From the IMG/VR virus record IMGVR_UViG_3300045988_142085, positions 160,001 through 224,000 of that record: a stretch of DNA of 64,000 nucleotides; one strand, written 5' to 3'. The first letter of the stretch is position 1, and each line of letters opens with the position of its first letter. Made by a program: the position numbers and the translations under genes. Positions 25,294-60,588 of the stretch are shown here, piece after piece. The notes beneath the pieces are model-generated. The model searched no databases, had not been told where the DNA came from, and saw nothing but the letters and a program-made list of their open reading frames with translations. Source of the stretch: a virus.

Positions 25294-25659
25294 TTAATAC
25301 ACTGAGCCTCCATTATCTTGACCATTTTCATCTGGGAAGATATCGCTCTTTAGTTCGCTTTCTTGGTATATTTCAGAACCGTAATCTGCAATCCAGCGAC
25401 CAGTAACAAGAGGACGATCCCCGTATGCTTCAATTATAACATAATCTCCGCCTTTTGGGAACCAATCATCAGGTGAATTTGTTTGTACTGGCATAGCAGG
25501 CTCAGTTATTGTTTCGCCATTTTGTGAAGTATACGTTACTGTACAAGTGCAAGTTTTAGGGTCAGATCCTAAGACTGACCCTTTCAACTTTGCAAACCCG
25601 TCATTACGGATCTGTTGTCCAGCATATGTATCTTTAAATTTATTCTGTATTACTGACAT
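25294..25659 (-). CDS. baseplate spike OB-fold protein, gpV/gp5-N-like (121 aa)
   Basis: The pattern G-x-V...C-x-V-x-V...ET...LP...WFPKGGDYVIIEAYGDRPLVTGRWI matches the OB-fold of P2 gpV-type spike proteins (...P-x-vGd-x-V-x-v-x-f-x-gGd...vlG). It sits directly after the tape-measure candidate, as in P2/Mu-like modules. Confidence 0.5.
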   Translation of the reverse strand: MSVIQNKFKDTYAGQQIRNDGFAKLKGSVLGSDPKTCTCTVTYTSQNGETITEPAMPVQTNSPDDWFPKGGDYVIIEAYGDRPLVTGRWIADYGSEIYQESELKSDIFPDENGQDNGGSVY

Positions 25660-28600: not shown

Positions 28601-31600
28601 GCGTTTTAATACTAATAAATTGATGACCTTGTTCTGGGGGATCGATACCGATAACACTTCCTAGTGAACGATACCAATGTTGTTGTCCTTGTTCTGAAGC
28701 ACCATTTTCAAACTGTAGACTATCACTATTAAATAAATTAGTAATATCGGTATTTTTTCTAAAGTTATAATAATGAGCAGAAGAGTCATTAGTTACTTCA
28801 TAAATATTTTGTACTGGTTCACCATTAACGAATATATCACGATAATATGGATCGCCATAATGATAAATACCGAATGGATTATTAGAGAATACTCTCGATA
28901 GAATATTCCAATTCTTCTCACGGAATAATTGACTTGCGTAGTTTTGATCTTGACATGTTAAGAATGAACTTACTAATACACGAGGACTTACGCCACCGAA
29001 AGATAAACCATAAGGAGATTCACCTAAGTATTTTACACCACGGTTTTTAATCTTATCGCCGAAATTATCTTCACGAATAGGGTTAGATAATTCTATGCCA
29101 TCGCCTTGACCGACGATACTTACTACGTCGCCACCTTGGATCTCAGTAACAGTACCGTTAAACATAACAGGTAACTTAGCTGCATCAGCAGAATAACCCA
29201 TGCGAATATGCATACGAGCACCGGCTACTAATTTAATAGAATTTCTCTCAGGTATTAACGCTTGTTTTTCACTTAAATTACGAACATAAGTACGAGGATT
29301 AAAAATACTATCGTATAGATTTTCAAGTCCGGCAACACCATATTGTAATTGTGTCGTAAAATTGTCGCCTTGTCCGTCGTCTTCATATTCAGCTAATATA
29401 TTTTGATATAAATTATTTAACTGAATAATAGCTGTATCGGCCGCAATATTTTTAGATTTAACGACTTGAATAGAACTTACTGCATTCGTACTATAGAAGC
29501 TATCATGCATCTTCCAGAATCCCGATGAAGCACCTTCATCGATAAACATAATCTGGAATGTCGGGAATCCTCGAAGCATCCTACCACGAACATCGGTTTG
29601 AACCATGTTAAGATATGAATCTCGAATGCGTCTTGCCAATGCTTTAGGAGTCATTGCATTTGCTTCTAATTCAAGTTGCTGCATAAATTCACGTTGAATT
29701 TGAGCGATAGGATTATCGGTTGCAATATCAATACCGAGCTCTTCGATTTTTTCTACGAGACCGGAAAGAACTAAACCATATAATAGTTTTCGCAAGCTAA
29801 CTTCGTCGTTTGTTAACGGAGCTGTCGTCGTAATATTCGGTGTAATTACTTTATGAGTTAACGCATTTAATGCATTATAATCACGAGTAACGATTTTTTT
29901 AATCAAAGAAGAATCTTTACACATCAACGATAAAGCCGTTGCTACGAATAATTTACCTTTAACAAATTTATCTTGATTATCTTTAACGAAGTTTTTAAGA
30001 GTTTTAACGTTCTTTTCTTGAACGTCGTTAGCAAGTTTCATATCCTTCATGAACTCATATGCAGAAGCTTCGCTTACAGCATTTTGGAACATGATATCCG
30101 TCATATAGTTAGGATAGATATTTTTCTTAATTAAAACACATAACCAGTATAAAACATTTCGTAAGAAAGCATGTTTTGCATAATTCATATCATGCATACA
30201 ATATTTCATATATTGAATTGTTTCATCGTGGTCGGATGTTTGATAATAAGGATCCAAGAAGTAATATCGATCAGAAGCTTCGAAAGTGAAGCCTTTATCT
30301 AAAAACTTTTTACGACGTTTATTATAATCGATCGGTAAGAATTGAAGCATAGGATTTTCTTCGAATTCTTTTTGAGTAAAGCAAGGAATACCGTAAGGGC
30401 CTAATTCAGTACAAGAACCATAACTATAAAAATCAGATGTGTCGTCTAAATGACGAACATAAGTTAAACCATTAATTGTATATCGTGTCGGCTTAAAGTT
30501 TTTTACGTTAAATTCTAAATCACTTTTTTTATCTTTAGAATCATCCTTATCTTTATTATAGTTAGGATCATTAAAGATACTATTTGATTTTCCGTTAAGT
30601 TTTACAGATTGCCCCCATAAGCCATATTGACCGCCATTTTCTTGAGCACCATTAGCTAAAGCTTGACCCATATACATAATAATGCTTTTTGCTTTTTCAG
30701 GTTCAAGATCAGTAGAGAACCCAGAAGCAAGTGCAGACCAAGCAAATTTATTTAACCAATCATTAATGTCGGCATTCCATTTGGAAGTTAAAGTAGTATC
30801 GACAGATTTTGTTTCGACAATAATATTTTTAAAATATTGAATTAAAGCTTCTTCAGAACCTTCATCTTCAATAGAAGTTTCAGATAAGAACTTAAGAGCT
30901 TTATCAGCTTCCCATTGGAATGTATTAATGCTATCAACGATTACAGATTTAAGAGCGTTTTCGCCGCCCTCTTTTTTAACCTCGTTGACTTTTTTCTCAG
31001 CGCCTTCTTTTACGTCATCACCAACGACATCAAATTCTGCATTTTTTTGAATATCGTTTTTAACGACAGGTGCAGCTTCTTCTACTTTTTCTTTGGCCTT
31101 ATCTGCTTCCTTTTGGCCATCTTCTGTGTTTAAGTTATGATATAACCATGCATAATAAGGTTCTAAGAAAGTAACGCCGATAGATTTACCGACCTTCCAT
31201 TGACCGGTCGCAATACCAGATTTGAAGAGTTTCATGCGTTGTTCGTTCTCTTCTTTTTTCATCTGATTTAATTTTTCTTGCGTTAACTGCCAATCTTTAG
31301 CCGTCATTTCAGATATGCCACCATTTTGTGCAATCATACCATGACGCATAGAATATTGAGCAGCCTCACTAAGATCGGAAAGTATTTTTAATTCACCAGA
31401 TGGATTACCGTCTTCATCTGGTTTGGCAAACATTTGTAACATCTTACTATCTTGCAAAATACAGTCTCTTAATAATTCCGAGAATAAATGTTCGTGATAG
31501 AAGAAATAAAAATCAGGATCGACAAATACTTGATCTCGAGGATTTTTATAACGAATGAACTCGAAGCCTAACTCGCCAAGCTCTTTAATCGTTGGCAACT

Positions 31601-34600
31601 CTAAATCTGGATATAATTCAGCTTTAGATAAATTTTGATCGATTTCGAAGTAGCCTAATGCGGCTTGCGCAGCACGTTGAGCCGTAGCTTCTTTAGATGC
31701 AAAATTAGATTGTTCGAATTGTTTATAGATAGCAAATCGATTACGAATCGTTCTATCAGTTTGGCGCAATGTTACATTAATTTGAAATAACCCAGGATAA
31801 TTTACGACAGTCGAAATCGATACTTGTTCGACGATTACTTCGAATATACCTAATAAGCGAGTGAATTCAGAATCAATTCTGAATGGATAACTCGGTAATG
31901 CATTCGGATATTTCTTTTTAAAATAAGAAATAATCTTCGGGATCTTATCGAAGCGATCGACAGTTTCTTTATCATAAGTCATTACAGAAAATGTTAACGT
32001 AGCATCTTGTCCGCCCATAAACTGAGGAGCCTGACCATGATATGTATTCAATGTCATGTTGGCATATGTATTAGAGAAGTTTGCTGTTAAACCTTGTACT
32101 AATACATCTTCTAAATACGTTACATATTGAATAGAGCCGATACGTTCAAATTCAGAATCTTCATAATTTTCATATGTCTCTTGATTGCCAGACATTTGAA
32201 CAGAACCATCAGCATTTTGTACAGCAGCAAATTGAGATGCACAATATTCTAAGAATTTAGAATCGCCATCATAAGGAGAATATTCTAATGTGCATTGACC
32301 ATTATTTTGCTTTAACACAATTCTAAAGTTAAATGCGTTATCGGCAAACACCATATCATAATAACTAGTTTCTAAGAACATTCCAGACTGATCGGTATTC
32401 TGAATATTATCAGACATGTTCTGATTGCCACCACCAGTTAAGGTGGAAACAAACTGTTGTCTTAATAATAAAGATTCATCTCGACTATTATAATCGACAC
32501 TCGGAATGATTTTAATTTTTAAATAATCATTATCTGGGTCTTCATCGAAACTGTACTGAGGTTTAGCTTGTCCGCCGCCAGCAATTGATAGAGCATAATC
32601 CTTAGCAGCTTTAGCTACGTCGATATGTTTTTCTAAGATAGAATAATCGGACGGAATATTTAATTTTTGTAAATAATCGACAATTTCACGACCAGCTGTT
32701 GACATTACAGAAGCTTTATCGCTATAATTAAATTTATATTTTTTAAGAATATTATTAATTTGATCGCTATGAATCGTTTTATAATATTGATTTGCGATCG
32801 CAAACAATTCTTTATCTTTTTCAGATGGACGATAATAGTTAGGAGCTTTATTATTACTATGAGTAAAAGTCTGTCTAACTTTCTCCATCTTAACAAGCTT
32901 ACCTTCGTCAGGCATATAAATATTAATTCTAGGATTTAATGTGTCGACCGGCATATAAGCAGATCGATTTGCGAACAATGTTTTCTTCATAAAATCTTTA
33001 GAAGAAATATTCATCTTTCGATCGTGAAGGTCTTGTCCTAATTGCAATGGTCGTTGAATATACCAACGTAATAAATCATAGTTGATTGTCTTTGCAAAGA
33101 AGTTGCGATAAATATCGACAACGCCATCTTGTAAGTCACGCTGTTTAGGAACTTGAGGCATAAATACTTGATAATCAAATTCTTTAAGCAACAGCGTTAC
33201 TTTTAATAATTTAGGATAGTTCGGAACTGTCGCTACCGACATCGATTCAAAACAAATAGCATCGATATCGAGAACTTCATTAATATATTTATTTTCGATT
33301 GGCATATATGGAGCAAAATGGAATTCAGATAGCAACGCCCGGAATCCATTCATATGATATACGACTTTTTTCTTTTTATCACTAAGATTTGTATACCACT
33401 CTACAGGTTGTCCGTTAATACCACGGTCTTCGTTAAAGTATAATTCTAATTGTAAAAATCGTTCAGGTTTTGCATTTTCAATATTAGCAGAACCTTTCGC
33501 ACGAAGTAACGGAACAGAATTTGTATAAGCTTGTGTTACCGTATTGATAGAAATAGGTGGAACAAATAACGTTACATCTCCGATTGTACAAGTCCAATCG
33601 GAGATAGAATTTAATCCTTTAGTAATGTTATTCCAACCAAACGCTTTATTCTGAATATCGTGACGATTATCGTATTGTGATGTAGCGTTCCATACTGCAT
33701 CAGTCCAAGCTTTCGTATCGTATTGATATGCCCAAGGTTTAAGATGAGGATTCGTAAAATCAGAATACTTTAAAATAGAAGTATTACGATGGCGAGCAAT
33801 GATATATTTATTTAAATTAATCCATTGTCCATCTTTATCTTTTACGAAAATAACAGCTAAGTTACGACGATAATGTTCTAAACCATATGCGTTAATGCCT
33901 GTTTCTTGGAATACGGTAGGATCTTGTCCAGTAAAGAATTTATTAAATGTATTAAAATAGTTAGCTAATAATCCATTACCAGGAAAGCTAATCATATTCT
34001 TAGGGTATGCCGTAGTTTGATCCTGTTTAGAAGAGCCATTGATATCGATAACGGCACGAACTTCTTGTGCGTTCTTTACCATATTTACGACATCATTAGC
34101 CGCAGCATATGCTACTTCTAATGTACCGTAATTAGTTCCGTCAGCCATTAAACCAAATACAGGTTTACGTCCATTTAATAATGTAGAAGATCCGCCAAAA
34201 CGTTTTTCGGTTAAATAATCATTTACTTGGATCCATTTATTGTCGAACTCGCCGATTTGAGCAATCGTAACAGTATCGCTATCTTTATAACGTTCCCATT
34301 TAGAACCGTTCTTATTGCTACTAGAATCATAAGCTTTCGTTAAAAAAGCTTGATAATTTTGAACGGCTTCACCGTATGTAACTTGTTTAACGTCAGTTGC
34401 ATATACGATAGACCAGTGATGAACTTCTGGTGCATCGTAGAATAAGAAACGGAAGCCCATATCATAATCAAGACTTCTATTTTCGTCTTTTACTTTGTTC
34501 GCATCCAGAACATCTTCTGTCGCTTTTTTATTGCCGGCTAACCATGCTCGCATGTTTTGCTGACCGACACACAGATATTCTAACAGTTCTGGATCTTTTA

Positions 34601-35030
34601 CTTCTGCTTTTCTTAAATCGGCATATAAAGTATCACCATCGACAAAACCAGCATGTAAATCTTCATCTGTAATTCTAAAAGCAGATGGAGGAAGGCTGAC
34701 CATAGCCAGCCCTCTCAATCTATCAATACCAGTGTTTTCTAATGGAGGATTTTCTTTATAGAACAAAGCCTGTTCTTTTGAATCGCCCATCTTTTTAGCG
34801 AGCTCTTCATAAATTCTCATGTCGACTGCGCCTTCTTCAAAGTCGGCTAATTCCGGAAGGCTCATCTGAGTATCTCGAACCATTTGGTCAAGCTCTTCTT
34901 TTGATCCTTCAGTCGGATTATTAGGAATATCTTCCTTTTTTGTCTCGACTTGATCGGAAGCCTTCTTGCCGACTTTTTGACCTAAGTGTTGAGTCGCATA
35001 GTTAACACCTGGCTTTTTATCTTCCGCCAT
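25659..35030 (-). CDS. giant protein (3123 aa), best tape-measure candidate
   Basis: ATG at 35028..35030 with AGGAG 7 nt upstream. The C-terminal ~900 aa combine Gly-rich segments (GAIGSRGGSVGAGAGSLIGGAIGTGIELGL), hydrophobic membrane-like helices (STLMRIAIYALGVYNLQRAYIVRAII; GNVLMVAAAYTLGRW) and long K/E/A coiled coils, which is tape-measure-like composition. It lies between the chaperone candidates and the spike gene. Function is inferred. Confidence 0.5.
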   Translation of the reverse strand: MAEDKKPGVNYATQHLGQKVGKKASDQVETKKEDIPNNPTEGSKEELDQMVRDTQMSLPELADFEEGAVDMRIYEELAKKMGDSKEQALFYKENPPLENTGIDRLRGLAMVSLPPSAFRITDEDLHAGFVDGDTLYADLRKAEVKDPELLEYLCVGQQNMRAWLAGNKKATEDVLDANKVKDENRSLDYDMGFRFLFYDAPEVHHWSIVYATDVKQVTYGEAVQNYQAFLTKAYDSSSNKNGSKWERYKDSDTVTIAQIGEFDNKWIQVNDYLTEKRFGGSSTLLNGRKPVFGLMADGTNYGTLEVAYAAANDVVNMVKNAQEVRAVIDINGSSKQDQTTAYPKNMISFPGNGLLANYFNTFNKFFTGQDPTVFQETGINAYGLEHYRRNLAVIFVKDKDGQWINLNKYIIARHRNTSILKYSDFTNPHLKPWAYQYDTKAWTDAVWNATSQYDNRHDIQNKAFGWNNITKGLNSISDWTCTIGDVTLFVPPISINTVTQAYTNSVPLLRAKGSANIENAKPERFLQLELYFNEDRGINGQPVEWYTNLSDKKKKVVYHMNGFRALLSEFHFAPYMPIENKYINEVLDIDAICFESMSVATVPNYPKLLKVTLLLKEFDYQVFMPQVPKQRDLQDGVVDIYRNFFAKTINYDLLRWYIQRPLQLGQDLHDRKMNISSKDFMKKTLFANRSAYMPVDTLNPRINIYMPDEGKLVKMEKVRQTFTHSNNKAPNYYRPSEKDKELFAIANQYYKTIHSDQINNILKKYKFNYSDKASVMSTAGREIVDYLQKLNIPSDYSILEKHIDVAKAAKDYALSIAGGGQAKPQYSFDEDPDNDYLKIKIIPSVDYNSRDESLLLRQQFVSTLTGGGNQNMSDNIQNTDQSGMFLETSYYDMVFADNAFNFRIVLKQNNGQCTLEYSPYDGDSKFLEYCASQFAAVQNADGSVQMSGNQETYENYEDSEFERIGSIQYVTYLEDVLVQGLTANFSNTYANMTLNTYHGQAPQFMGGQDATLTFSVMTYDKETVDRFDKIPKIISYFKKKYPNALPSYPFRIDSEFTRLLGIFEVIVEQVSISTVVNYPGLFQINVTLRQTDRTIRNRFAIYKQFEQSNFASKEATAQRAAQAALGYFEIDQNLSKAELYPDLELPTIKELGELGFEFIRYKNPRDQVFVDPDFYFFYHEHLFSELLRDCILQDSKMLQMFAKPDEDGNPSGELKILSDLSEAAQYSMRHGMIAQNGGISEMTAKDWQLTQEKLNQMKKEENEQRMKLFKSGIATGQWKVGKSIGVTFLEPYYAWLYHNLNTEDGQKEADKAKEKVEEAAPVVKNDIQKNAEFDVVGDDVKEGAEKKVNEVKKEGGENALKSVIVDSINTFQWEADKALKFLSETSIEDEGSEEALIQYFKNIIVETKSVDTTLTSKWNADINDWLNKFAWSALASGFSTDLEPEKAKSIIMYMGQALANGAQENGGQYGLWGQSVKLNGKSNSIFNDPNYNKDKDDSKDKKSDLEFNVKNFKPTRYTINGLTYVRHLDDTSDFYSYGSCTELGPYGIPCFTQKEFEENPMLQFLPIDYNKRRKKFLDKGFTFEASDRYYFLDPYYQTSDHDETIQYMKYCMHDMNYAKHAFLRNVLYWLCVLIKKNIYPNYMTDIMFQNAVSEASAYEFMKDMKLANDVQEKNVKTLKNFVKDNQDKFVKGKLFVATALSLMCKDSSLIKKIVTRDYNALNALTHKVITPNITTTAPLTNDEVSLRKLLYGLVLSGLVEKIEELGIDIATDNPIAQIQREFMQQLELEANAMTPKALARRIRDSYLNMVQTDVRGRMLRGFPTFQIMFIDEGASSGFWKMHDSFYSTNAVSSIQVVKSKNIAADTAIIQLNNLYQNILAEYEDDGQGDNFTTQLQYGVAGLENLYDSIFNPRTYVRNLSEKQALIPERNSIKLVAGARMHIRMGYSADAAKLPVMFNGTVTEIQGGDVVSIVGQGDGIELSNPIREDNFGDKIKNRGVKYLGESPYGLSFGGVSPRVLVSSFLTCQDQNYASQLFREKNWNILSRVFSNNPFGIYHYGDPYYRDIFVNGEPVQNIYEVTNDSSAHYYNFRKNTDITNLFNSDSLQFENGASEQGQQHWYRSLGSVIGIDPPEQGHQFISIKTQGRTVWDMLQFAASANPSYIGATDYFGFRSTVFMGLPNWYYAYKYIKNNKQLNVLEKRKPYSQFHMYWSDHDILSNQIQTNSNKVATVAKGMYQFEEVKKSTPDIYFDRDIYPEYQRSMVVDTWLHGRTQVHTSSENTFGIDSEIGSLDSYATVTGAFTSVVGGAIGSRGGSVGAGAGSLIGGAIGTGIELGLKNVASWAISNFAPDNYGGPEHNHAQTARLMTLSRLKKSVEQIYSGNLVVYGDPTVKPHDRISIFDEPNSMTGQARVREVVHTLSATTGFVTTITPDAIVDVLNDKTTQAVNMAITSTLMRIAIYALGVYNLQRAYIVRAIIDDGWGLFARAKGWAAAEYAEKVSNDLNRIKKRQNALESFYKKIKTREAGIKTALDAAKEAKDEAKIAELEAKLLAVETRLAKYDPIKSSLALSKYELQGREGISKVLNAWSEASSNFEKANLEISKKVFNLRMPEFTKLSNEADVFKVNKDNFVKKKIEELANVEDLDKFDRGGKANLESLYKQQAEEAFNKEYKKRIDKLKAYSKETQSLIKDVQSINNTKKGQETLAALKAKPEISKKIIDATSKDILMKSKAGALFNKIAGSTIGRYLSSALNFGSKIGGNVLMVAAAYTLGRWGDMISDFIQNYKTLSVTPLLKRGMPFIPAWAGNSGTIFMSPNWGKRGQVLDLMDSVFNHRFQDQEGYHPIAGSLSFILNASMGGGPADALQRYQLNADGNMYANNMGGDYEYLVNQNYVDGLLQRGSIRSVEQLLMRNNEENDKDKQEIKMRAEQFMHNIEDVQKDNTSILDPLVPVPGPEFDIFKQFKFFVVRHEKALNNEESKNTVEFSVNQGGKPVKVIGIKGKDGDGNEIVDAPLLHPFALNTLRKIIFQAEQMLSYKTTTDQNTYINKVSNDYITLTSCYLFGTKKIFPGSGFGFTLIAHGESKDNLKVIMDTLKEKDELTYQVYDNDDGKVYQVNVNIPKLGA

Positions 35031-35044
35031 AGAATCTCCTTTAT

Positions 35045-38000
35045 TTATAATACACTATCTAAATAATTGCTAATATCGTTAGCATTCATATCTTCATATT
35101 TAGATGTAACTCTTGTCGTAACAGTTGCGCTACCGCCAGAACCTACAATATTTGGCATAGCATTTAACGCAGCAACTGCAGCTTGTGGATCTTGACTTGT
35201 CGAAGTTGCTACATTGATTATATAACCACCATTAGCAGCACCTTGTTGAGGTTGAACTAAACGAACTGACGTATTAGAATTATTAATTTGCTGAGCTGAT
35301 GTATTGTCGACATCTGGAATCGGAGAAGCCGATCCATAACCAGCAACAAGAATCGAAGAACCTAAAGCAGCCATTGCTCCTAAAACAGATTTACTTCGTG
35401 CCTTACGAACAATATCCATAGCTTTAACTTCGCCACTTCTTAATTTTGCCATACGTTCAGCAACACCAGAACCAATTAAAGACTCATTCATCTTAACAGC
35501 TTGAATTTGCTCTTCAGGATTGTTTACGATAGGGGCCATATTATTTAAAGCAGAATTATTAATAATCGCTTCTTGAGAAGCGCTATGCATATCGTTTGTA
35601 CTTCTAAACATAGAATGCCTATCACCGGTAATGCTTACACCGAGATCTAGTTGAGCTAATGTAGATCTAAGATTTAATTTGTTTTTCTCCATATAAGAAG
35701 CAATTGCTTCGGTCATATTAGATGTCTGCTGCTTAAATTGTTGTCGAACATATTCGTCGGCAGCACCTTGAATTTCTTCAGCGCTTTTACCTTGTAATCC
35801 ACTGTTCGCAATAAAATCAGAGTTATTAGCAACCGCATCGACCATAGTCGATAAAGATTCTTGTTTCCGCTTCATTTCAGACCATATAGCTTTATTATAT
35901 GTATCGTCTGTAATAAGGTTACCAATATTACGAATATCTTCAGCTGTCTGGGCATGTTTTGTCAAATCGGTAAACACATCGGCAAACTGATTCATTACGT
36001 CGGCAGTAGCACTGCCAGCATTCTTTGCCGACAAACGAGCTTCTTGAACACCGATAGCTACAGTAGAAGCCGTATGCCCTAACTTTATTCCGCCAGAATA
36101 TTGAGTCATAAACTCTTCATTGAATCCGACATCGTTAGCTAATTTTTGTAAATTCTTTAACGGGTTATATGTTTGACCAGCATAGCTTGAAGCTTTATGA
36201 GTTTTTGCAAGAGTATTACTATCTGCACCTTCTATTGTAACATCACTTACTGTTTTTGTCGATGGATCGTAACTTCTTCTTGCTGTTTCTTGGAATGTTA
36301 CGGCACTATTATCCATAGCAGATGTAAGTAATAAACTGTCGTCGGTCATACCAGAATTAGTAATAATGTCTTCATTCATCTTAATTAGCTTAATTTGGTC
36401 ACCGTCATAGTCGAGGCCTTTACCTTTAGCCATAAGCTGATTAGTTCTTACTTCATTCTCGGCAAGACCTTTATTTAAATAAATTTTACCGAAATCTACA
36501 GATGTAGGATAGTCGAATGGATAACGTCCGACGCCCATCATCATACCTTCAGTTTCAAGTTGCTTAATTTTAGCAGCTCGACCTGCAGCATCTAGTCCGT
36601 CAAATACACCTAGCTTTTCAAAGACATCGATAGAGGCTTCACCAAAGCTTGTACTTAAACCGGCCTTTTGGGCTTCTTTAATCGTCATTCCGCCAGCAAA
36701 TTTTCGAGACGAAATAAAGTTTTCATCGAAATCGAATACGTTCGTAGCAGCTGCTTGAATACTTTCACCAAGATAAGCAGAACTTGTCGATTCTAATATA
36801 TGACCCTTGCCTCTTAAGTTTTTAGTAACATTATCACGTAAACTATTGTAGGCTTGATCCATATTATCTTTTAACTTAGCAGCTTCTTCGGTATATTGAA
36901 CGCCGTCTTGAATTTCCATTTCGCCAAGTTTTTGTGCCGAATCAAAGAACGATTTAATTTGTGCTTTCGTTTCTGGACTGTGAGCACTTTGCGGAATATA
37001 CATTTCATATTTTCTGCCGCCGATTGTATCGCTAAATTTACCTGATTTATATTCACCAGTTTTCCTATAGTGATTAATCATTTCATCGATAGTAAGAGGA
37101 GAGTCTATATCGTTAAGGGCTTTTCTAAATACTTCTCTTTCTTTATCAGTGCCTTTAGTGCCAGCAATAATATCGGCGAAATCTCGAGTATCGTCTGCCA
37201 TACGACCACCTTTATTATTTCGGTAATCGGCAGCATGATGAGATAAACGTTCGGCAAATTCTTCGACATAATCTTTAGTAGCTTTAATACCTTTTTCATC
37301 GAATAAATCGTATACGAATTTCTCCAATGACGTATCGGCAAAGTCGCCAGCCTGAGCAAGTTTTTGACGAGATTTTCTAGCAGCACGAGAATAACGAGTT
37401 CCGTTCATCGCAGCATCGGATAATTTTTCACCGTAATTAATTTCACCGGTTATATTATCATATACACCAGTTGCAGCTAAAGACTCTTGCAACGTACCAG
37501 TCGGATCTATAACTTTTAATAATTCTTTAGCTGTTTTCGCACCGACTTTTAATTCTCTTACTTTCATTAATTCATTCTGATTGAATACGGCATGTTGTAG
37601 CTCACCGATGTAATCTTTTGAATAAGCCGTAACTTGTTGAGCCGTTACTTTACCAGAAACACCCATAGTTAATTTATCAACGTCACTAAGTTTTTGTACG
37701 AGTTTTTCATCCTGATCTTTAAGCATAATTTTAAAGATGTCGCCAAAATTCTTGCCGTCTTTTATTTCATATACGCCTTCGGTAAACATAACTCTATTTA
37801 ATTTCTCATCGAAATAAATAGCGCCTTTGTTAAATAATTCTATTGAACCAGACTCGTTTAAATTGTCGACGGCTTTTCTCATAAATGCACGTTTAACGTC
37901 CATAGGTTCATCGGCAATATTATCTAACCATTGTTGTGTTAAACCTGCGATATCTTTACGTTTAACCATCTCTTGTTCACCTTGAATAATATCGATCGGT

Positions 38001-41000
38001 GATCCATGGTTAACCGTTTTAGCTAATGCATTAGCGATAACATTACGTTCTGTATTAATACGTTTTTTAATTGCGGCGTAAGCCTGTTCTTTAGATGCAT
38101 CTTGAGTTAAGCCGACTTCTAAGAGTAAACTCTTACGCATTTTTCTCAAATTCTGAGTTAGCCGATTTTTATCGCCAGAATAATAATGATAAGCAATTTC
38201 GTTAAGATCGCCAGATAAGAATTTAGTAATACCTTCTGTATTAAATTTTAATCCGACCATATTGCCAAAACCTGTATCATTTAAAATTTTAGCAATATTT
38301 TTATCGACTTCACCTAAACCGAAACCTAACACCGATGTTGTTTGTTTAGCGTTCCCAACAAACAATTTACGAGCCACATCTCTAAAGTTATGCAATACCA
38401 TTCTAGTATCGATACCTTTAGATTTAAGTGCATCAATCATTCCTTTAATATCATCAGGTTTGTTTTTAACACTTAATTCTTGTAGCATCTTTGATATTTT
38501 AGATTCAGAAACAATATTATTATCGGCATCGACAAAATGAATTCGACCAAATAAATTACTTTTAGCAGTTTTAGATGTTGCACCAGAAAATTCAGTATCC
38601 ATCGAAGTCTCGACAATATCTTGACCTCTTAAGAATACCGCATCAGAAACTTCTTTTAATTCGAATTTACCGTCGGCATTTATTTTAATCGGAACATGAC
38701 GTTCGATAAATTCTTTACTGATATCTTTATTACCGGCTAAGTTAATAGCTTCACCGCCATGTAATCCATAGGTCGATTGACTTAATGCATCGGCAAGTTC
38801 TGGAGAAATCTTAGCAGAACCTTCGATATTAGATTTTAAAGCTCGAGAATACTCGCCATACAATTTATCGACTTCGTTGGAACTTAAAGTACGATGATAT
38901 TCGTTTTCTATACTCGTTACAATTTCGTTGAAAGACTTGTCGATAATTTCTTGACCTTCTTTATCGTGCTGTAACAACATAGTATTCGTATTGAGCACGG
39001 CTCTATTTGTATCGGCTTTAACCGAGCCTATCCAGGATTTATCGGTATAATAACGAGCAGGATCATCGCCATGATCGAGAGCTACTTGTTCGACACCTTC
39101 TCGTAATAACGTTCTGGATTGACCAGCAGATTGTTGATAACTACGTTCATTACCAGGGCTAATAGCAGAAGCATTAGTCGCCGTATCATATCGTTTAGCG
39201 CCTTTAAGCACTTTAGCGTTATGATTTGTTTCACTCTTCGTAATATTTTGTTCTTCGTATTTTATATCAGATAGAATAGCATATTCATTACCAGAATATC
39301 GAGTACTTGTTTTTAATGTACCATCATCGTTATAAATAATTCTGCCTTCACTATCATATTTAAAATCGTAAGTATCAATACCGACAAAATTCTTTTCGAT
39401 AAATTGTTCATCATGAAGTACTGCATCTAGTCCTTTAGAAGAATCTTTAGGATTAAGTAATGCATTAATCGCATTCTGCGATTTACTAGACGGAGTATAA
39501 TCTTTAAATAAATCTCCGCTTTTGCCATCCCATGCTGGATTAATTGTCTTAAAGAAATTAATTACGTCGTCTCGACCAGCGCCTTGTTCGACAACACCCA
39601 TCTTAACGAAATGATCGACAGTTAATACATTAGTATTAAATAATTCAGGAAGAGATCGTATAATATCTCTTTTATGGTCGGTAAGATTTTTTAGCGCGAT
39701 ATTTGAATCAGAGGTTCTTAATATTTCTGGTTTATCTAAATCGAAACCTTTATCACCAGGAGATAAACCTATTTTATTAGGGTTTGCTTGAGCATTTTTA
39801 AGAACGTTAGTTAATACTTCACCGATACTAGCATTTTTATCGGTCTTTAACCATCCTTTAACAGACGGAAGTATATGATCGAAGTTAGATAGTTCTCTCG
39901 CCACATATTGTAATGCTGGCTTAACTTTTGCCTCGCCGCCATCCATATGAATAGACCTAACAGCTCGTTGGGTGAAGCTCATATCGACAGCGCTGTTGCC
40001 ATGTTGGAAAGCAAAGTTGCCGCCATTAGTGTATACTACTCGAGATAAATATTTACTAATATCGTAGAATTTATTGCCTTCGACAATCGCGACGGTATTT
40101 CCTCGAATCGATAAGTTAGCATTGTTACCAAGACTAGCTACAATTTGATTGGCAATACTTGTCATTTGTTTATCGATCGTATTAAAACGAGCCGATAATA
40201 CTTTGTCTGGTTGAAGACCTTTATAGCGATCGATAAACATGTCTTCAGTAAGACCATTCATTAAATAGCCTTTTAATCGTTGGCTTGCATCGACTGGACT
40301 TTTGCTTAAACCGTCTGCAGCAGATTTAGCTACCGATCTTAATATAGTCTTCTGTGCATCAGAAGTAATAATTGCCTTACCCGGGGTTAAATCATAGCTT
40401 CTAAAAGCCTCATCGTGAGGATTACGTTGTTGGTATGTTTGTAACTCTCTGATAAAGAACTCAGACATATCTCTAAACGATATATCGTCTTGAGCTTTTA
40501 AATCGTTAAAACGTTTAGTAATGTTAGATAAAGCGCCACCACGCTTTTCGAGCTTATTCGCAAAATAATTAAACCGATCAATTAATTGTGTCGGCGTAAT
40601 CGTTCTATTGGTACCATACGTTCTAAGTTTTTTCTCGAGTGTAGCAGCAGCCATATTAAAATCTTTTTCTTTTAGGCTTAAACTGAATTCTACGCCACTA
40701 AGATTTTGAGGGCCAGCAAGTCCGGCCAAGAATTTATCATCAATTCTAAAACGAGAATCATAAGATACTTCGCTATTACGAATCATACGAGTGTATTCAT
40801 TCATAACAGATTGCATTACGTAGTCAGATGCAATCTTATCATGTTCTAATCCACTTGCCGCAATTTCTCTTGCTGCTGTCGAGATCAAGAAATGATTATC
40901 TTTAGAATTAATATTATTTAAAATTTCTTTAACGGCACCGAATGAAGGGATATATCCTTTTTCAGGATTATATCGCTCTTTCATGCCGGCTGCTATTTTT

Positions 41001-42802
41001 TCGATTGAACGAGCAAATGCTCCTTTATCGATACCGCCAAGATCTTCGACAGTATAACCCGACATTGCTTCAGCAACAGATTTACCTAACTCAATATGAT
41101 CTTGAAGAATTGTTGCTGCAGCCAACTGCTGTTTCTTAGTAGAGAATGTACTAACAATAGGATCGATAACAAAATTTTCTCGACTATAAGTCGCCGACTG
41201 AATTTTGTCGATAACGTTACCACGAGATTGTCGTTGATAAGAACGTACTAATAAATTATTAAAAGTATCTTCTGCCGTATTTGCCATACCAATACCTAAA
41301 GAGTTCGTCGCAATTTTCATGCCAGGCATATTATATTGCATACCGTCTTTAGTACGTTGAGCAATCGGTACAAAAGATTCCATAAATTGATTTTCTAAAT
41401 TTTCTTTTGTTCCGACAATATATCGTAATGCACCGTCTTGACCTGTTAGCTCAACCATGTGTAAATCATGGCTACCATTAATACCAAGTTGGCCAGCATT
41501 CTCTGCTATATAACGACCAAGATTAAGATCGTTATGATCGAGTTTCATTACTTTGCTTACTTCGTAAACAGCATTCGTTTTAAAAGTAGAACCTCGATAT
41601 GCCGTATAATTTTTGCCGTCGACATGACGCATATTATATTCTGGGAAAATATATTCTCCGCCATTACGTTCAAACGTTAATAAACCAGAGTTTCTTCCCC
41701 ATACAGAATTAATATTGCTTACAAATGTACCGGCTTTAATTTCTTGCATATTCGATTTATTATCGGCAATTACTTTAGCAGCCGATTCTAAATAAGATCG
41801 GAAGTATTCATTGTTATATAATTGCTCCAATACAGAAATATCGGCGCCAGCATCATGGGCCTTAGACACATCGATACCGAGCATACGAGCAAAATCTTCT
41901 TGTCGCAAACTAGAGCCCTTAATATAATAGGCTCCGAGTCGACCAGCTTTAGTTTGTTTGGCTCCGCGCAATATAGAGTCTTTATATGCTCGAGACATTG
42001 CTTCAGGATCTAAAGTAATCGCTGTTTTAATCGTTTTAAAAATATCGAAATGATTTTTAGTTGCTATTTTATTAACTGCTCTTGTCCCTAATGTTCTAGT
42101 AATATCGGGAGACTCACGTAAAGCAGTCGATACTTTATTAACGTCGAAGAACTGACTATTAAAACCAATTACTTGTGTGCCAGAAGAAATGTGCTGATCT
42201 ATTTCTCTAGCTATATTATTTAAACCGTCTTGATGATTGTTAGATAAATAATCGATACCAAGACCAATTAATTTGGTTTTATCGTCGGCATCGTTTAATG
42301 CTTCGAGTGCGCCACCGGAACTCATGTTGTTAGCATTTTTACCGATACGAGCTAATGTATCGTAAGCAACTTTTTCTTCTCGAGTTGCTGTATCATAATT
42401 GAATGTACCGTTATCAAATTTTAATCGCAACAAAGATGCTTGATCTTTTGTTAAGCCATTCATAACGACACGAGTGCCGTTCTCATCTTTTGCAGCATAT
42501 TGCCAAATAATATCTGGCGTTCTTACTGCTCTATCTTGACCGTCGACATTTACGAGTACAGACGGAATTGTTTCAATATCGAAAAAATAAGATTTCGCGT
42601 CCGAAGGCGGCAATACCTTAGCTTTATTATTTAAGGATAAAGCGGAGTCAGACGCTGACTCAATCGCCAGCGTCATATCCTTTCTTCTATTTAAATTAGC
42701 TTTTTCTAATAATTCAATAAGATGACTAGGTGCACCAAACGATTCTTTATTAAAAGCATCGTATGTCGGTCTCCTAGTTATATAAGTAAAATCTTGATCC
42801 AT
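35045..42802 (-). CDS. giant protein (2585 aa) with a DYDGDQ motif; candidate virion-associated enzyme (RNAP-like?)
   Basis: ATG at 42800..42802 with AAGGA upstream. Residues 2131-2135 are DYDGD (nt 36398..36412), followed by Q and preceded by ...GRYPFDYPTSVDFGKIYLNKG...LMAKGKG, reminiscent of the R-x-P ... NADFDGDQ double-psi beta-barrel context of two-barrel RNA polymerases. The C-terminal end has a hydrophobic/Gly segment. Function is speculative. Confidence 0.45.
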   Translation of the reverse strand: MDQDFTYITRRPTYDAFNKESFGAPSHLIELLEKANLNRRKDMTLAIESASDSALSLNNKAKVLPPSDAKSYFFDIETIPSVLVNVDGQDRAVRTPDIIWQYAAKDENGTRVVMNGLTKDQASLLRLKFDNGTFNYDTATREEKVAYDTLARIGKNANNMSSGGALEALNDADDKTKLIGLGIDYLSNNHQDGLNNIAREIDQHISSGTQVIGFNSQFFDVNKVSTALRESPDITRTLGTRAVNKIATKNHFDIFKTIKTAITLDPEAMSRAYKDSILRGAKQTKAGRLGAYYIKGSSLRQEDFARMLGIDVSKAHDAGADISVLEQLYNNEYFRSYLESAAKVIADNKSNMQEIKAGTFVSNINSVWGRNSGLLTFERNGGEYIFPEYNMRHVDGKNYTAYRGSTFKTNAVYEVSKVMKLDHNDLNLGRYIAENAGQLGINGSHDLHMVELTGQDGALRYIVGTKENLENQFMESFVPIAQRTKDGMQYNMPGMKIATNSLGIGMANTAEDTFNNLLVRSYQRQSRGNVIDKIQSATYSRENFVIDPIVSTFSTKKQQLAAATILQDHIELGKSVAEAMSGYTVEDLGGIDKGAFARSIEKIAAGMKERYNPEKGYIPSFGAVKEILNNINSKDNHFLISTAAREIAASGLEHDKIASDYVMQSVMNEYTRMIRNSEVSYDSRFRIDDKFLAGLAGPQNLSGVEFSLSLKEKDFNMAAATLEKKLRTYGTNRTITPTQLIDRFNYFANKLEKRGGALSNITKRFNDLKAQDDISFRDMSEFFIRELQTYQQRNPHDEAFRSYDLTPGKAIITSDAQKTILRSVAKSAADGLSKSPVDASQRLKGYLMNGLTEDMFIDRYKGLQPDKVLSARFNTIDKQMTSIANQIVASLGNNANLSIRGNTVAIVEGNKFYDISKYLSRVVYTNGGNFAFQHGNSAVDMSFTQRAVRSIHMDGGEAKVKPALQYVARELSNFDHILPSVKGWLKTDKNASIGEVLTNVLKNAQANPNKIGLSPGDKGFDLDKPEILRTSDSNIALKNLTDHKRDIIRSLPELFNTNVLTVDHFVKMGVVEQGAGRDDVINFFKTINPAWDGKSGDLFKDYTPSSKSQNAINALLNPKDSSKGLDAVLHDEQFIEKNFVGIDTYDFKYDSEGRIIYNDDGTLKTSTRYSGNEYAILSDIKYEEQNITKSETNHNAKVLKGAKRYDTATNASAISPGNERSYQQSAGQSRTLLREGVEQVALDHGDDPARYYTDKSWIGSVKADTNRAVLNTNTMLLQHDKEGQEIIDKSFNEIVTSIENEYHRTLSSNEVDKLYGEYSRALKSNIEGSAKISPELADALSQSTYGLHGGEAINLAGNKDISKEFIERHVPIKINADGKFELKEVSDAVFLRGQDIVETSMDTEFSGATSKTAKSNLFGRIHFVDADNNIVSESKISKMLQELSVKNKPDDIKGMIDALKSKGIDTRMVLHNFRDVARKLFVGNAKQTTSVLGFGLGEVDKNIAKILNDTGFGNMVGLKFNTEGITKFLSGDLNEIAYHYYSGDKNRLTQNLRKMRKSLLLEVGLTQDASKEQAYAAIKKRINTERNVIANALAKTVNHGSPIDIIQGEQEMVKRKDIAGLTQQWLDNIADEPMDVKRAFMRKAVDNLNESGSIELFNKGAIYFDEKLNRVMFTEGVYEIKDGKNFGDIFKIMLKDQDEKLVQKLSDVDKLTMGVSGKVTAQQVTAYSKDYIGELQHAVFNQNELMKVRELKVGAKTAKELLKVIDPTGTLQESLAATGVYDNITGEINYGEKLSDAAMNGTRYSRAARKSRQKLAQAGDFADTSLEKFVYDLFDEKGIKATKDYVEEFAERLSHHAADYRNNKGGRMADDTRDFADIIAGTKGTDKEREVFRKALNDIDSPLTIDEMINHYRKTGEYKSGKFSDTIGGRKYEMYIPQSAHSPETKAQIKSFFDSAQKLGEMEIQDGVQYTEEAAKLKDNMDQAYNSLRDNVTKNLRGKGHILESTSSAYLGESIQAAATNVFDFDENFISSRKFAGGMTIKEAQKAGLSTSFGEASIDVFEKLGVFDGLDAAGRAAKIKQLETEGMMMGVGRYPFDYPTSVDFGKIYLNKGLAENEVRTNQLMAKGKGLDYDGDQIKLIKMNEDIITNSGMTDDSLLLTSAMDNSAVTFQETARRSYDPSTKTVSDVTIEGADSNTLAKTHKASSYAGQTYNPLKNLQKLANDVGFNEEFMTQYSGGIKLGHTASTVAIGVQEARLSAKNAGSATADVMNQFADVFTDLTKHAQTAEDIRNIGNLITDDTYNKAIWSEMKRKQESLSTMVDAVANNSDFIANSGLQGKSAEEIQGAADEYVRQQFKQQTSNMTEAIASYMEKNKLNLRSTLAQLDLGVSITGDRHSMFRSTNDMHSASQEAIINNSALNNMAPIVNNPEEQIQAVKMNESLIGSGVAERMAKLRSGEVKAMDIVRKARSKSVLGAMAALGSSILVAGYGSASPIPDVDNTSAQQINNSNTSVRLVQPQQGAANGGYIINVATSTSQDPQAAVAALNAMPNIVGSGGSATVTTRVTSKYEDMNANDISNYLDSVL

Positions 42803-42814
42803 TGTTTAATCCTT

Positions 42815-45800
42815 TTATAAGAATGATAACGCTTTATCTATTTTGTAACCAATAACAGAAGTTACATTAGTTACTATATCTATTATACCATCTTGTTGCG
42901 TAGGATTCACCTGTATTTGTTTTTCAGTTAAACCGATACCACTTAATACAGTATTGATTTTAGCTCGGACAGTAATAGGATCATCGCCATTTCTAATATT
43001 TTCTATATTAGGGGCGTTGATAACTTCTGGATCTTCATAGGTCGAAGAATAAATACCGAAGTCTGCATATTGCATTCCTTCATTGTATATTACTTTCGCC
43101 TTAATATCTTCAAGGTTAGAAGATGCCTCCCAACCTTGCCATAATGGCCCAGGAAGATTGTGCGTCGTAAAGTACGATTCATTAGATTCTGTTTCAGTTT
43201 CTTCTTGATACCATACAAGTTTTAATGCTTTAGCTAATGATGGAGATACGTTACGTAAGATAGCTCGTCGTTGTTTTTCGTTAGTTACTTTAGCAAACTC
43301 GACAAAATATTCTTTTTCGGTACTAGGTAATGCACGAATAATATCGGAATATTCACTATCTTTATTTAACGCATATACAGTAGATTCAGCTACTTGATGA
43401 TACATAATAGCCTGTTCTGTCCATTCGCCAGCAGCAAGTGTCGTCATATCTTCGCTAAGACGACCGAATTTTTTATTAATCCATTGAGCTAATGGATCGT
43501 TAGACGGAGTACCAGAAGTTAATACGGATGCCATCATATCGGTAATCGATACATCGCCATCCATCTCGGCACGAAGAGCTGCTTGATGTTGATATAACTT
43601 ATCGACATCAACGCCTTCTTCAGATTTAGCTTTTTCTTTAGCAGCTTCATATAGACCCATATATTTTATATAACGGAGTCTATCGAAGTATTCTTCTGTA
43701 TCCCAACGCTTTTCTACGTTATCAGGAGTATATACATGGTCGAGACCTAACGCCTCTGTAATCGGATTATTCTTAGCTAATGCGATCGCTAAACCAGTAC
43801 CAGCAAAAGCTGCAGCTTGTAGCATACGACTAGCACGAGTTCGCTTAGCAAAATCGACTAATTTTTCAATACCTTTATTATCGACATTGCCAAAGATACC
43901 TTCGGCAAATCTACCGATAATAGATTCGTCAGAAACAAATTTATCGAATAGATTTAAATGGCTTCCAATATCATAACCCATACGTCCCCATGCATATGTC
44001 GCATACATAGGATCGTCTGTCGATGTCGCCATTGCAAATGCATTACCGGCAAATCTAAACGCACGAGAAAGTTTTTCTTTACGTTCTACGGCATTAGCAC
44101 CAACAAAAGTAAAACGACCTGTGATTTCACCGGCTAATGCTGGACCGTCTAAATATGTCGAGGCAAATTTAGCAACAGCTAATCTAGATTTAGAAGCATT
44201 ATCTAAAGCTCGACTATTTAGTCCTTTATAATAACGATATGCACTATCGGCAACCAAATCTTTTACGAACGATGTTTTACTTTGTTCGAATGTCGGAACA
44301 AGCATCGTATCGATGATATCTTCCCATGAAGCAAAGCCGCTACCGTATAATTGATCACTACGATATTCTTCTAGTGGGTCATTAATTCTCATGAATTGAC
44401 TATGCAAAATCGGAATTTGTGCATGCGTAACTAATTCGGCAGCACTACCAAAAATACGTCCAAATGTATTGTAGTTAGCATATGCACCGGCAGCAGAACT
44501 GTCGTCCATATCGTATTCAGCTAACCCGACTTCTCGCAATGTATCCGAGATATTCTCGCCGTTTAAAAATAACGCTGCACGAATCGGAGCTTGTGGTGCA
44601 TCTGGATTATCGGTACGTTCTTCATCGTCGATACGCATTGTCACTCGTTGTCCAGGTTGGATAACTTGCAATAATTGTTGTTTCGACATGAAGCCGTTTT
44701 CTTTAAATTTTACACCGGCAATTTGATATAAACGATCGTCGCCAGCAATTTTAAATTTGCCGTTAGATAATACTTCTTCGATATGCCCTTCTTGAGACAC
44801 AGTCGTTTTTCCTAAGAATTTATAATTAAAGAAATCATGTTTTTTACCCTGATGTTTAACCATCTCTTCAGTATCTTGCAATACTTTTTTGGCTTCGTCA
44901 GAGTTCATCATCTTAACGATTTGTTTCCAATATTTATACTCTGGACTATTCGGAGCAATGTCGGCTAATATTTTATAACGGTCAATAGCACCATAGCCAT
45001 CAGATGCAAATTGATCTGGATGTAAAGCATTGATAGCTTCATATCCTTTACCAGGAAGACGAGCTTCTGCATTAGGTAGAGATGTATTATGCGTAGCAAA
45101 ACCAACAACACAAAAAGAATTATTTTGATTTACTTGATAGCCATATACTTCTTTAATAGTATTTATTTCTTTAATGTCTTCAATTCTTAAATAAAGATAT
45201 CCATTATTTATATAATGATGAGAAGATTCTCTTGCTCTGTTATTTATTGGTAATAATGATTTACCGAATAATAATTCAGACAGTATAGAAGCTTTTTTGC
45301 CCCTAATATTCAAACTATAAGATATTCCAGCTGTTACAAGATATTTAGTAATTCTTATTTTTTTAGAAGTTTTATTGTGAATATTTATTGATCCAACAAT
45401 ATTAAATCTTAATAATAATTTTCTTACTTGATACAACAATTTTTTATTGCAAGATGTAATACTAATCTTTTCTGTTTCCTTGCCATATCCAGATTTCATT
45501 ACAAAGTTAGATCCATCGCCACATATATAGCCTTCTAATAATCCTAGAACGCATTCTTCTTTTGCATCCCAGAAGAATTCTGGAATCTTCTTATCATGAG
45601 CACCTTTATTAAATAATACATCTAATAAAGATGCAATTATAGATGATCCAAAACGAGAATAAGCACCATTTGTAACGCCTGATCTTTTAAAAGAAAAGTT
45701 AATATATGAATCTATTTGCTTAAATCCTAAGAATGCATTATATGCATAATCTCGCTCATTAATATTATGAGCCATTCCAATGGAGCATCCATTGTTCCAG

Positions 45801-60569: not shown

Positions 60570-60588
60570 ATTTAAACCTCTTAAGAAA

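Follow-up and report, generated by a model that had tools for sequence, protein, structure and literature searches.

A beta-prime-like RNA polymerase module predicted in a tape-measure-position protein of a jumbo myovirus

The locus and its metal-binding motif

In this report, we focus on a giant open reading frame (ORF) found in a 64,000-nucleotide (nt) stretch of viral DNA, positions 160,001 to 224,000 of the IMG/VR record IMGVR_UViG_3300045988_142085, which we will call the window. The genes of the window form the tail module of a myovirus: sheath (57537..60599), tube paralogues, baseplate wedge and hub. All the large ORFs lie on the minus strand. The ORF in question (35045..42802, minus strand) encodes a protein of 2585 amino acids (aa) in tape-measure position, and it is full-length (2540-2587 aa) in the homologues P0001-P0005 and P0126. 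A preliminary description, made from the letters of the window, had noticed a DYDGDQ motif in this protein and proposed it as a candidate giant two-barrel RNA polymerase (RNAP).

The motif is indeed present at residues 2131-2136, in a region that reads ...GVGRYPFDYPTSVDFGKIYLNKGLAENEVRTNQLMAKGKGLDYDGDQIKLIKMN..., and it corresponds to nt 36395..36412 on the minus strand, the coordinates first given to it (36398..36415) being 3 nt too high. Its aspartates D2131, D2133 and D2135 form a putative Mg-binding triad. The R-x-P segment resembling that of beta-prime, which had been placed about 40 aa upstream, is found as well: R2093-Y-P2095 (36518..36526, minus strand), within the stretch GRYPFDYPTSVDFGKIYLNKG, is the counterpart of the RxP element of beta-prime NRAPTLH, and it lies 38 residues before the motif when counted from R2093, with 35 residues between P2095 and D2131. 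With R2093-Y-P2095 followed by D2131-Y-D-G-D, the protein passes the [RK]xPx{20,100}DxDxD filter, which is the one used by Chaban et al. in their survey of viral two-barrel RNAPs (PMC10770324, Supplementary Data 4).

Among the 20,347 aa of the 28 window ORFs of at least 150 aa, D.DGD is unique to this motif. To set a chance level, 2000 within-protein shuffles were made in which the composition of each protein was kept. Of these trials, 19% produced D.DGD in one or more of the three giant proteins and 35% in any of the 28 ORFs, the figure being 10% for D.DGD with [RK].P located 20-100 aa upstream in any ORF, and 1.4% for D.DGDQ. The level of about 0.1 that had been estimated beforehand was thus a fair one, and the occurrence of DYDGDQ alone is not beyond chance. 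It is the conservation of the motif and the fold predicted around it, rather than its mere occurrence, that raise it above that level.

Conservation and predicted fold

A word-indexed search of 5.8 billion proteins returned only five relatives of the 2585-aa protein, four of which are 84-94% identical to it and carried on contigs of about 230 kb, the fifth, P0005, being 30% identical. Scanning 1.84 billion cluster representatives by HMMER with a profile of residues 1750-2420 brought two further useful sequences: P0126 (2582 aa, about 23% identity), which has the same architecture, and P0130, a 493-aa protein on a short contig. In the seven-sequence alignment, R2093, P2095 and the three aspartates make up five of the 15 invariant columns; no homologue found, even at 21% identity, departs from them, and the motif itself appears as DYDGDQ, DYDGDK, DHDGDK or DADEDS. 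Residues 2001-2150, around the motif, are among the best-conserved parts of the protein, together with the N-terminus and the extreme C-terminus. No match came from tblastn against 50,697 phage records, whether the query was the whole protein or residues 1990-2160 (E up to 10).

Residues 1750-2420 were modelled with AlphaFold2 from this alignment. The mean predicted local distance difference test score (pLDDT) of the model is poor (51), and residues 1819-2139 lie between 60 and 89. The model contains several helices, a beta-hairpin and a long helical hairpin (1943-1998), followed by a strand and helix pattern: strands MMMGVGRY, VDFGKIYL and EVR, helix QLMAKG, the Asp loop, and finally strand QIKLIK. 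The location of the Asp loop matches that in beta-prime. The double-psi beta-barrel (DPBB) predicted in this way, which is DPBB-A-like, spans residues ~2005-2145 (36368..36790, minus strand). It is preceded by a helical region, residues ~1819-1998 (36809..37348, minus strand), whose 1943-1998 hairpin, as modelled, would resemble the clamp helices of beta-prime.

When the model was compared by Foldseek with 350,542 PDB chains, the best 50 matches were all RNAP largest-subunit chains, including bacterial beta-prime, its cyanobacterial and plastid homologues, the beta-prime of phage AR9 and yeast RPA1. Their E-values range from 1e-4 to 1e-3 and their probabilities from 0.87 to 1.0, over about 290-475 columns, which is far beyond the barrel alone. 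The helical region before the barrel belongs to what is aligned with beta-prime, in alignments of 320-480 columns. The double-psi-barrel context suspected from the motif is thus borne out by the prediction, with RNAP subunits of the beta-prime/RPA1 type as best structural matches. Another structure comparison returned such matches mixed with DPBB domains of a generic kind (Cdc48-N, formylmethanofuran dehydrogenase D, designed DPBBs and expansins). No RlpA, MltA 3D or expansin-like domain came out as the best structural or profile match.

At the sequence level, the best match of the family profile among PDB sequences is phiKZ gp55, a beta-prime N-terminal subunit (E 0.38, non-significant), and the alignment pairs eGilvgvgRyP...aDyDgDklkl with KGMGCTFHRNP...ADFDGDQLNL. 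Similarly, hhalign against residues 1-1200 of P23-45 gp96 gave a single alignment, that of NEVRTNQLMAKGKGLDYDGDQIKLI with NAVVVNQEYAKSTGVDFDGDTLVVL (44% identity, E 0.047), and no relation to gp96 was seen beyond the catalytic loop, either in sequence or in structure. The DYDGD of the window is aligned with the DFDGD of phiKZ gp55 as well as with that of gp96. The sequence-level matches all point to one register, though none of them is significant alone. Nothing was obtained at the catalytic region by hhalign of the family against E. coli beta-prime and against gp99 and gp146 of Bacillus phage 0305phi8-36, and the 2585-aa protein has no match to Pfam RdRP PF05183, the QDE-1/YonO/crAss gp66 type.

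The signature extends to cultured phages. In BFVD, the model matched best an uncharacterised protein of Acinetobacter phage vB_AbaM_ME3, in its fragment 2 (E 1.9e-5, 716 columns), and next came phage and giant-virus RNAP subunits. In ME3, the 1603-aa gp036, annotated as 'hypothetical', lies between gp035, a homologue of 0305phi8-36 gp145, and the hub gp037. Its sequence includes ...SLMASREPAQGT...MMGGDHDQDQAAVL, with aspartates at 1217, 1219 and 1221, and in its family (7 members, to 31% identity) R1174-E-P1176 and these three residues are invariant. By hhalign, residues 1946-2141 of the window family align with residues 1019-1230 of ME3, RYP facing REP and DYDGD facing DHDQD (E 0.02-0.03). 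In Bacillus phage vB_BceM_WH1, gp095 (2515 aa, annotated 'virion structural protein') occupies the same position and reads ...GFTNRYPTINKQTNG...AKVFKADHDGDNG at residue 1996 (NRYPT...DHDGD). Its weak match to Pfam RNA_pol_Rpb1_2 (residues 1941-2013, E 0.09) is the only one, since no member of the family alignment matched this domain at E up to 10. The aspartates, on whose conservation the initial proposal had been made to depend, are therefore kept not only among the homologues but also in two further clades at the same position.

Taken together, these results support the view that residues ~1819-2145 are homologous to the catalytic region of beta-prime, with a metal-binding triad that is intact and selectively maintained. 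We hold it highly probable that barrel A (residues ~2005-2145) is RNAP-derived.

The tail module and the other domains

Gene correspondences were obtained by BLASTP against 0305phi8-36, and the genes given here are all on the minus strand. The tape-measure block begins with the tail assembly chaperone (50577..51380), which matches the two-gene chaperone gp143/gp144 (PMC2147016). It is followed by a 2579-aa gene (42815..50554), homologous to the virion protein gp145 and carrying an intein, then by the 2585-aa gene, and then by a 3123-aa gene (25659..35030), homologous to gp147, a T4 gp27-like baseplate hub with cell-wall hydrolase domains. As its flanking genes match gp143-gp145 on one side and gp147 on the other, the 2585-aa protein stands exactly at the place of orf146. 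Its product, a 2537-aa virion protein, owes its assignment as the tape measure to the length of the tail, and only the extreme C-terminus allows homologues of it to be recognised (PMC2147016). This product, gp146, is annotated as detected by mass spectrometry. The same gene order is observed on the P0005, P0002 and P0126 contigs, and in ME3 and WH1.

No similarity between the 2585-aa protein and gp146 could be detected, and comparison of their C-termini gave no significant alignment. They are nevertheless alike in that both have a hydrophobic helix about 110-130 residues before the C-terminus, and then a small domain. The traits of a tape measure are found in the 2585-aa protein: a place after the chaperones and before the hub, a great length, a largely helical character and a C-terminal hydrophobic segment. 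There is also a weak match to Tape_meas_lam_C at residues 2342-2380 (35663..35779, minus strand), which is sub-threshold (E 0.004-0.006, 17 vs 23 bits). It is from the position of the gene that we infer the presence of the protein in the virion.

The hydrophobic, transmembrane-like helix, as read from the sequence, is SVLGAMAALGSSILVAGYG, at residues ~2471-2490 (35333..35392, minus strand). It is conserved in P0005 and P0126, and is collinear with hydrophobic segments of ME3 gp036 and 0305phi8-36 gp146. The extreme C-terminal domain that follows (~95 aa; 35048..35332, minus strand) is ~64% identical to that of P0005, for 30% overall, and conservation in the whole protein is highest over the last ~135 residues, made of the helix and this small domain, which stay nearly identical even in orthologues whose overall identity is 23-30%. 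Such an end would fit an anchoring at the hub, and it is probably the hub-contacting or membrane-inserting end of a tape measure.

At the other extremity, residues ~70-330 (41813..42595, minus strand) make up a putative DEDDh-type exonuclease-like domain, with D75-x-E77, then N215..F219-D220, then H316-x4-D321, as counterparts of ExoI (DxE), ExoII (Nx3[FY]D) and ExoIII (Hx4D). Its motifs, in order FFDIET, GFNSQFFDV and AHDAGAD, are invariant in four divergent sequences, and those of WH1 gp095 are FFDIEN, GQNINTYDIPF and THMALQD; ME3 gp036 is without this domain. Pfam RNase_H_2 reaches 22.1 bits in P0126, for a cutoff of 22, and E 0.011 in P0005, and it gave no match on the 2585-aa window protein itself. 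By hhalign, the ExoII motif is in register with E. coli DnaQ, non-significantly, and a PDB profile search of the domain returned no match. We know of no obvious precedent for a tail protein in which an exonuclease is joined to an RNAP-like module.

A 528-aa intein, which includes a LAGLIDADG homing endonuclease, is inserted in the gp145-like neighbour (45086-46669, minus strand, within the ORF 42815-50554); it runs from Cys1 to a terminal His-Asn and is followed by Thr+1. At its junctions, ...FYMGDAY precedes the first C, and the final HN precedes TSLPNAEARLPGKGYE. Its boundaries are confirmed by the intein-free alleles of exactly 2051 aa, 97% identical, that are common in metagenomes. The intein interrupts a strongly conserved motif, between NP..NTM..W.P...F..GD.[YF] and ....GE.RLPG.GYE. 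The spliced product is 26-30% identical to gp145 in three blocks, and Pfam and PHROGs found nothing in it. In 0305phi8-36, gp145 carries an unrelated insertion of ~245 aa, 18 residues downstream of the same site.

Several other features of these tail modules deserve a mention. The 3123-aa hub is ~1200 aa longer than gp147 and matches it in three blocks only, its N-terminal ~480 and C-terminal ~680 residues having no gp147 match. The tail tube gene (54328..55572, minus strand) matches gp141/gp140. PHROGs labels it, along with its neighbours 51964-52602 and 52626-54341 (minus strand), as 'major head protein' (phrog_9206); this label is wrong, for BLASTP against gp140, gp141 and gp142 identifies the three genes as tube and tube-paralogue proteins, and the RefSeq record of 0305phi8-36 has the same mislabel. 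Between the sheath and the tube lies a free-standing 220-aa endonuclease gene (56355-57017, minus strand; phrog_4645, E 2e-30, weak LAGLIDADG_3), with non-coding DNA (~500-800 nt) on its flanks. No gene occupies this place in 0305phi8-36, and the endonuclease gene has the appearance of a mobile homing endonuclease inserted into the tail module. Finally, in Moorella phage MTATph1 (L013, 8383-15739), a transposase has apparently inserted into the tape-measure-position gene and split it: after CDS27 (1309 aa) come the transposase and small ORFs, and then CDS31, the C-terminus of which matches that of WH1 gp095.

The polymerase reading, its rivals and known systems

A beta-prime-like domain in a tape-measure-position protein means that the phage probably injects its own polymerase. 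We thus lean, with some reserve, towards the reading in which the 2585-aa protein is an active, injected RNAP, a function that we propose because of the analogy with P23-45 gp96. In this reading, the protein is the internal tail protein, in tape-measure position, of a ~230-kb jumbo myovirus related to 0305phi8-36, and its C-terminal third (~1819-2145) holds the clamp-helix-like hairpin and then the DPBB bearing the RxP and the DxDGD metal-binding loop. It would be assembled in the lumen of the tail tube, with its conserved C-terminal domain at the hub. Contraction of the sheath would drive it out into the envelope and cytoplasm of the host, and its hydrophobic helix may there contribute to a conduit. 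The polymerase module, presumably completed by a partner barrel with basic residues, would make pre-early RNA from the entering end of the genome, independently of the host RNAP, like gp96.

Several results weigh against this reading. Both models were built on alignments of 6-7 sequences, and their overall confidence is low (mean pLDDT 49-51). The Foldseek TM-scores are low (0.10-0.16), as is to be expected when a partly disordered query of 671 residues is compared with chains of 400-1500 residues, so that Foldseek provides evidence of local fold and homology, not of a global match. Every sequence-level match to known RNAPs is individually non-significant, and searches of Pfam, PHROGs and PDB sequences with the whole protein and six overlapping chunks of it gave no RNAP match. 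One distant fragment has DADED, where the Gly has become Glu. Downstream of the barrel, residues 2143-2420 are predicted to be helical with a pLDDT below 40, and the bridge helix and trigger loop are not resolved there; this region includes a conserved E-A-R-L-S-x-K-N (residues 2254-2261). No DxDxD is present in the same-position proteins of 0305phi8-36 (gp146) and MTATph1; the module is therefore not essential for the tape-measure role, and it is widespread in the lineage, not universal. A folded polymerase would also have to pass through the tail tube, or else be stored unfolded in it. Lastly, a model of residues 1400-2340 (mean pLDDT 49) reproduced barrel A and showed no second barrel, this model beginning inside the sole candidate region for it, and a profile of residues 1150-1560 gave only noise against PDB sequences and, by hhalign, against E. 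coli beta.

The candidate second barrel and the helix before it, at residues ~1216-1475 (38378..39157, minus strand), come from motif inspection, their C-terminal part being modelled with low confidence. Conservation across three divergent full-length sequences highlights this region. It contains ARSY(Q/N)(Q/K)S (ARSYQQS in the window), an EG[ST]A.IS..LADAL-type element (EG[ST]A.I....LADAL), and K1411-x2-K1414-x4-G-[RK]-[IV]-x-[FL], after which comes a strand, helix, strand pattern. The first of these recalls the helix preceding DPBB-B, which is 'PRNTYQSAMGKQA' in RPB2, and which has its counterpart in 'ANRALMGANMQRQ' of Thermus thermophilus beta. Judging from these motifs, the candidate barrel, a connector of ~500 aa and barrel A would together approximate the length of the beta C-terminus plus the beta-prime N-terminus. 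A regular-expression scan of all window ORFs for beta motifs (GDK..RHGNKG, NP..PSRM, GEME) yielded nothing convincing. The 2579-aa neighbour was also considered as the source of a beta-like barrel, its intein being located in a 'GD...R.PGKG' loop whose 'GKG' is reminiscent of the strand of DPBB-B in beta, PolD and gp96. It was rejected because the Lys of GKG is a Glu in a 53%-identical orthologue and in gp145; the conserved motif of the gp145 family is RLPG-x-GYE, and the motif order is the reverse of that of beta.

Hence, of the two-barrel RNAP proposed in the preliminary description, the beta-prime-like barrel is supported and the second barrel is not, the 1400-2340 model and the profile searches being negative. 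We regard a second barrel at residues 1216-1475 as a tentative assignment, somewhat more doubtful than credible. In a single-chain reading with two barrels, barrel B would lie at ~1216-1475 and barrel A at ~2005-2145, with a clamp-like connector of ~500 aa between them. The fullest form of this reading, an active polymerase derived from beta and beta-prime with both barrels on one chain and a DEDDh exonuclease in cis, in a contractile-tail tape measure, seems unlikely to us. Were it true, the two-barrel protein with its exonuclease would be an ejected, possibly proofreading or transcript-processing, polymerase, and a previously unrecognised RNAP family would exist in diverse jumbo phages of the 0305phi8-36 type, including the cultured WH1 and ME3.

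Four other explanations have to be weighed, which we take here in decreasing order of likelihood. The beta-prime-derived barrel could have been exapted as a single barrel that binds the incoming DNA end or a metal, and that docks, pulls or pilots the genome with no RNA synthesis. This would account for the fact that only one barrel is detectable and that the bridge helix and trigger loop are not resolved in the model, and it is in line with the absence of the module at the same position in 0305phi8-36 and the Moorella phage, as well as with the capacity of 0305phi8-36-type phages to encode gp99 as a separate YonO-like RNAP. However, an Asp triad and RxP that are invariant across three clades at 15-30% identity form the pattern of a catalytic site, not that of a scaffold, and in P23-45, too, a virion RNAP coexists with a non-virion one, so we consider exaptation decidedly unlikely. 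A two-barrel polymerase of another chemistry, whether primer-synthesising, RNA-dependent (QDE-1-like) or PolD-like, maybe acting with the DEDDh domain, is less likely again: the best structural matches are the beta-prime of DNA-dependent RNAPs and not PolD or QDE-1, and ME3 gp036 has the barrel without the exonuclease domain, though the present results do not distinguish between substrates.

DPBB enzymes that degrade the cell wall often occur in tape measure and tail tip proteins, and the acidic loop could be the catalytic site of such an enzyme (RlpA, MltA-3D or an expansin-like lytic transglycosylase). But none of them is among the best 50 Foldseek matches, all of which are RNAP largest subunits over ~290-475 columns, the RxP...DxDGD spacing and the position of the loop match beta-prime, and neither DPBB_1, 3D nor expansin of Pfam was matched at E up to 10; we thus find this explanation very improbable. 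As for a chance motif, devoid of specific function, in a long, Asp/Gly-rich and mostly helical tape measure, it could draw on the 19% of shuffles that give D.DGD in the three giants and on RNAP similarities that are individually non-significant. It is strongly disfavoured, since the triad and RxP are invariant at 21-30% identity, residues 2001-2150 are among the best conserved, independent clades carry the signature at the same relative place, and the fold prediction is specific.

If the 2585-aa protein is indeed an injected RNAP, then virion delivery of a polymerase would be a recurring, independently assembled strategy, used also through the contractile tails of jumbo phages on Firmicutes and Acinetobacter, and it would explain how transcription could start independently of the host in these phages. 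The two-barrel polymerase superfamily would also gain a very divergent branch of beta-prime-like type, one that escaped Pfam, PHROGs and, as far as the accessible part of its Supplementary Data 4 goes, the published survey (PMC10770324). Indeed, a term search of the accessible text of that file gave no entry for ME3, any Acinetobacter phage or 0305phi8-36. How a tail tube stores a polymerase and then expels it would become a mechanistic question. The presence of the signature in cultured WH1 (Bacillus cereus) and ME3 (Acinetobacter baumannii) makes the hypothesis directly testable.

To our knowledge, a tail-injected polymerase at the tape measure has been shown in only one unrelated long-tailed phage. 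This is the Thermus siphovirus P23-45, in which gp96 is a tape-measure-fused two-barrel virion RNAP (PDB 8H2M/8H2N) whose activity and role in pre-early transcription were shown experimentally (PMC10770324). The differences are many. The RNAP of gp96 is N-terminal (DFDGD at 779 of 5002), whereas the module of the window is in the C-terminal third of its protein (2131 of 2585). gp96 has no clamp, and the window module is preceded by a clamp-helix-like hairpin; the tail of P23-45 is non-contractile, and that of the window phage is contractile. Unlike gp96, the window protein has an N-terminal exonuclease-like domain, and in Foldseek comparisons its module is closer to multisubunit beta-prime than to the single-subunit enzymes. 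Finally, both barrels and the activity are demonstrated for gp96, while for the window protein, known from sequence and models, one barrel is seen.

Multisubunit beta-prime, including the split beta-prime of jumbo phages (phiKZ gp55 and the AR9 non-virion RNAP), provides the best Foldseek and PDB sequence-level matches, and it shares with the window module the RxP...(N)ADFDGD loop at the same DPBB position and the helices before the barrel. It differs in being a dedicated subunit and not part of a 2585-aa structural protein, and the window module has no significant sequence similarity to it, no Pfam RNA_pol_Rpb1 and no identified beta-like partner. Zn-binding or other landmarks of beta-prime were not noticed in it, no check aimed at them having been made. 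The crAss-like phi14:2 gp66 and the N4-type virion RNAPs are likewise polymerase modules in giant ejected proteins that transcribe early genes. Yet gp66 is of the QDE-1/YonO type and comes from a podovirus, which keeps it in the head or as cargo, and the N4 virion RNAP is T7-like, not two-barrel; crAss proteins gave only weak BFVD matches (E 7e-3 or weaker). Closer to the window in its setting, 0305phi8-36 gp146 (2537 aa) lies between gp145 and gp147 and has a similar C-terminal hydrophobic helix and tail domain, but no DxDxD. The same phage encodes, beside its right terminal repeat, the separate YonO/QDE-1-like RNAP gp99 (1218 aa; L005, 39078-42734), so this lineage does use two-barrel RNAPs; gp99 has no similarity to the window module detectable by hhalign.

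The preliminary description had held that an injected, single-chain RNAP encoded in the tail module of a myovirus would be novel. The fusion itself is known, from P23-45 (PMC10770324) and from the giant proteins of crAss-like phages; it is the setting in a contractile-tailed jumbo myovirus that is new. In the literature searched, which had limited coverage, no contractile-tailed phage was described as having an RNAP at the tape-measure position. Compared with these known systems, what is new is thus the occurrence in contractile-tailed jumbo phages, in at least three deeply diverged clades with two cultured members, of a family unrecognised by annotation resources. New, too, are its beta-prime-like rather than QDE-1-like character, with a clamp-helix-like element, and the C-terminal placement of the module, in a different domain order and with an associated exonuclease-like domain.

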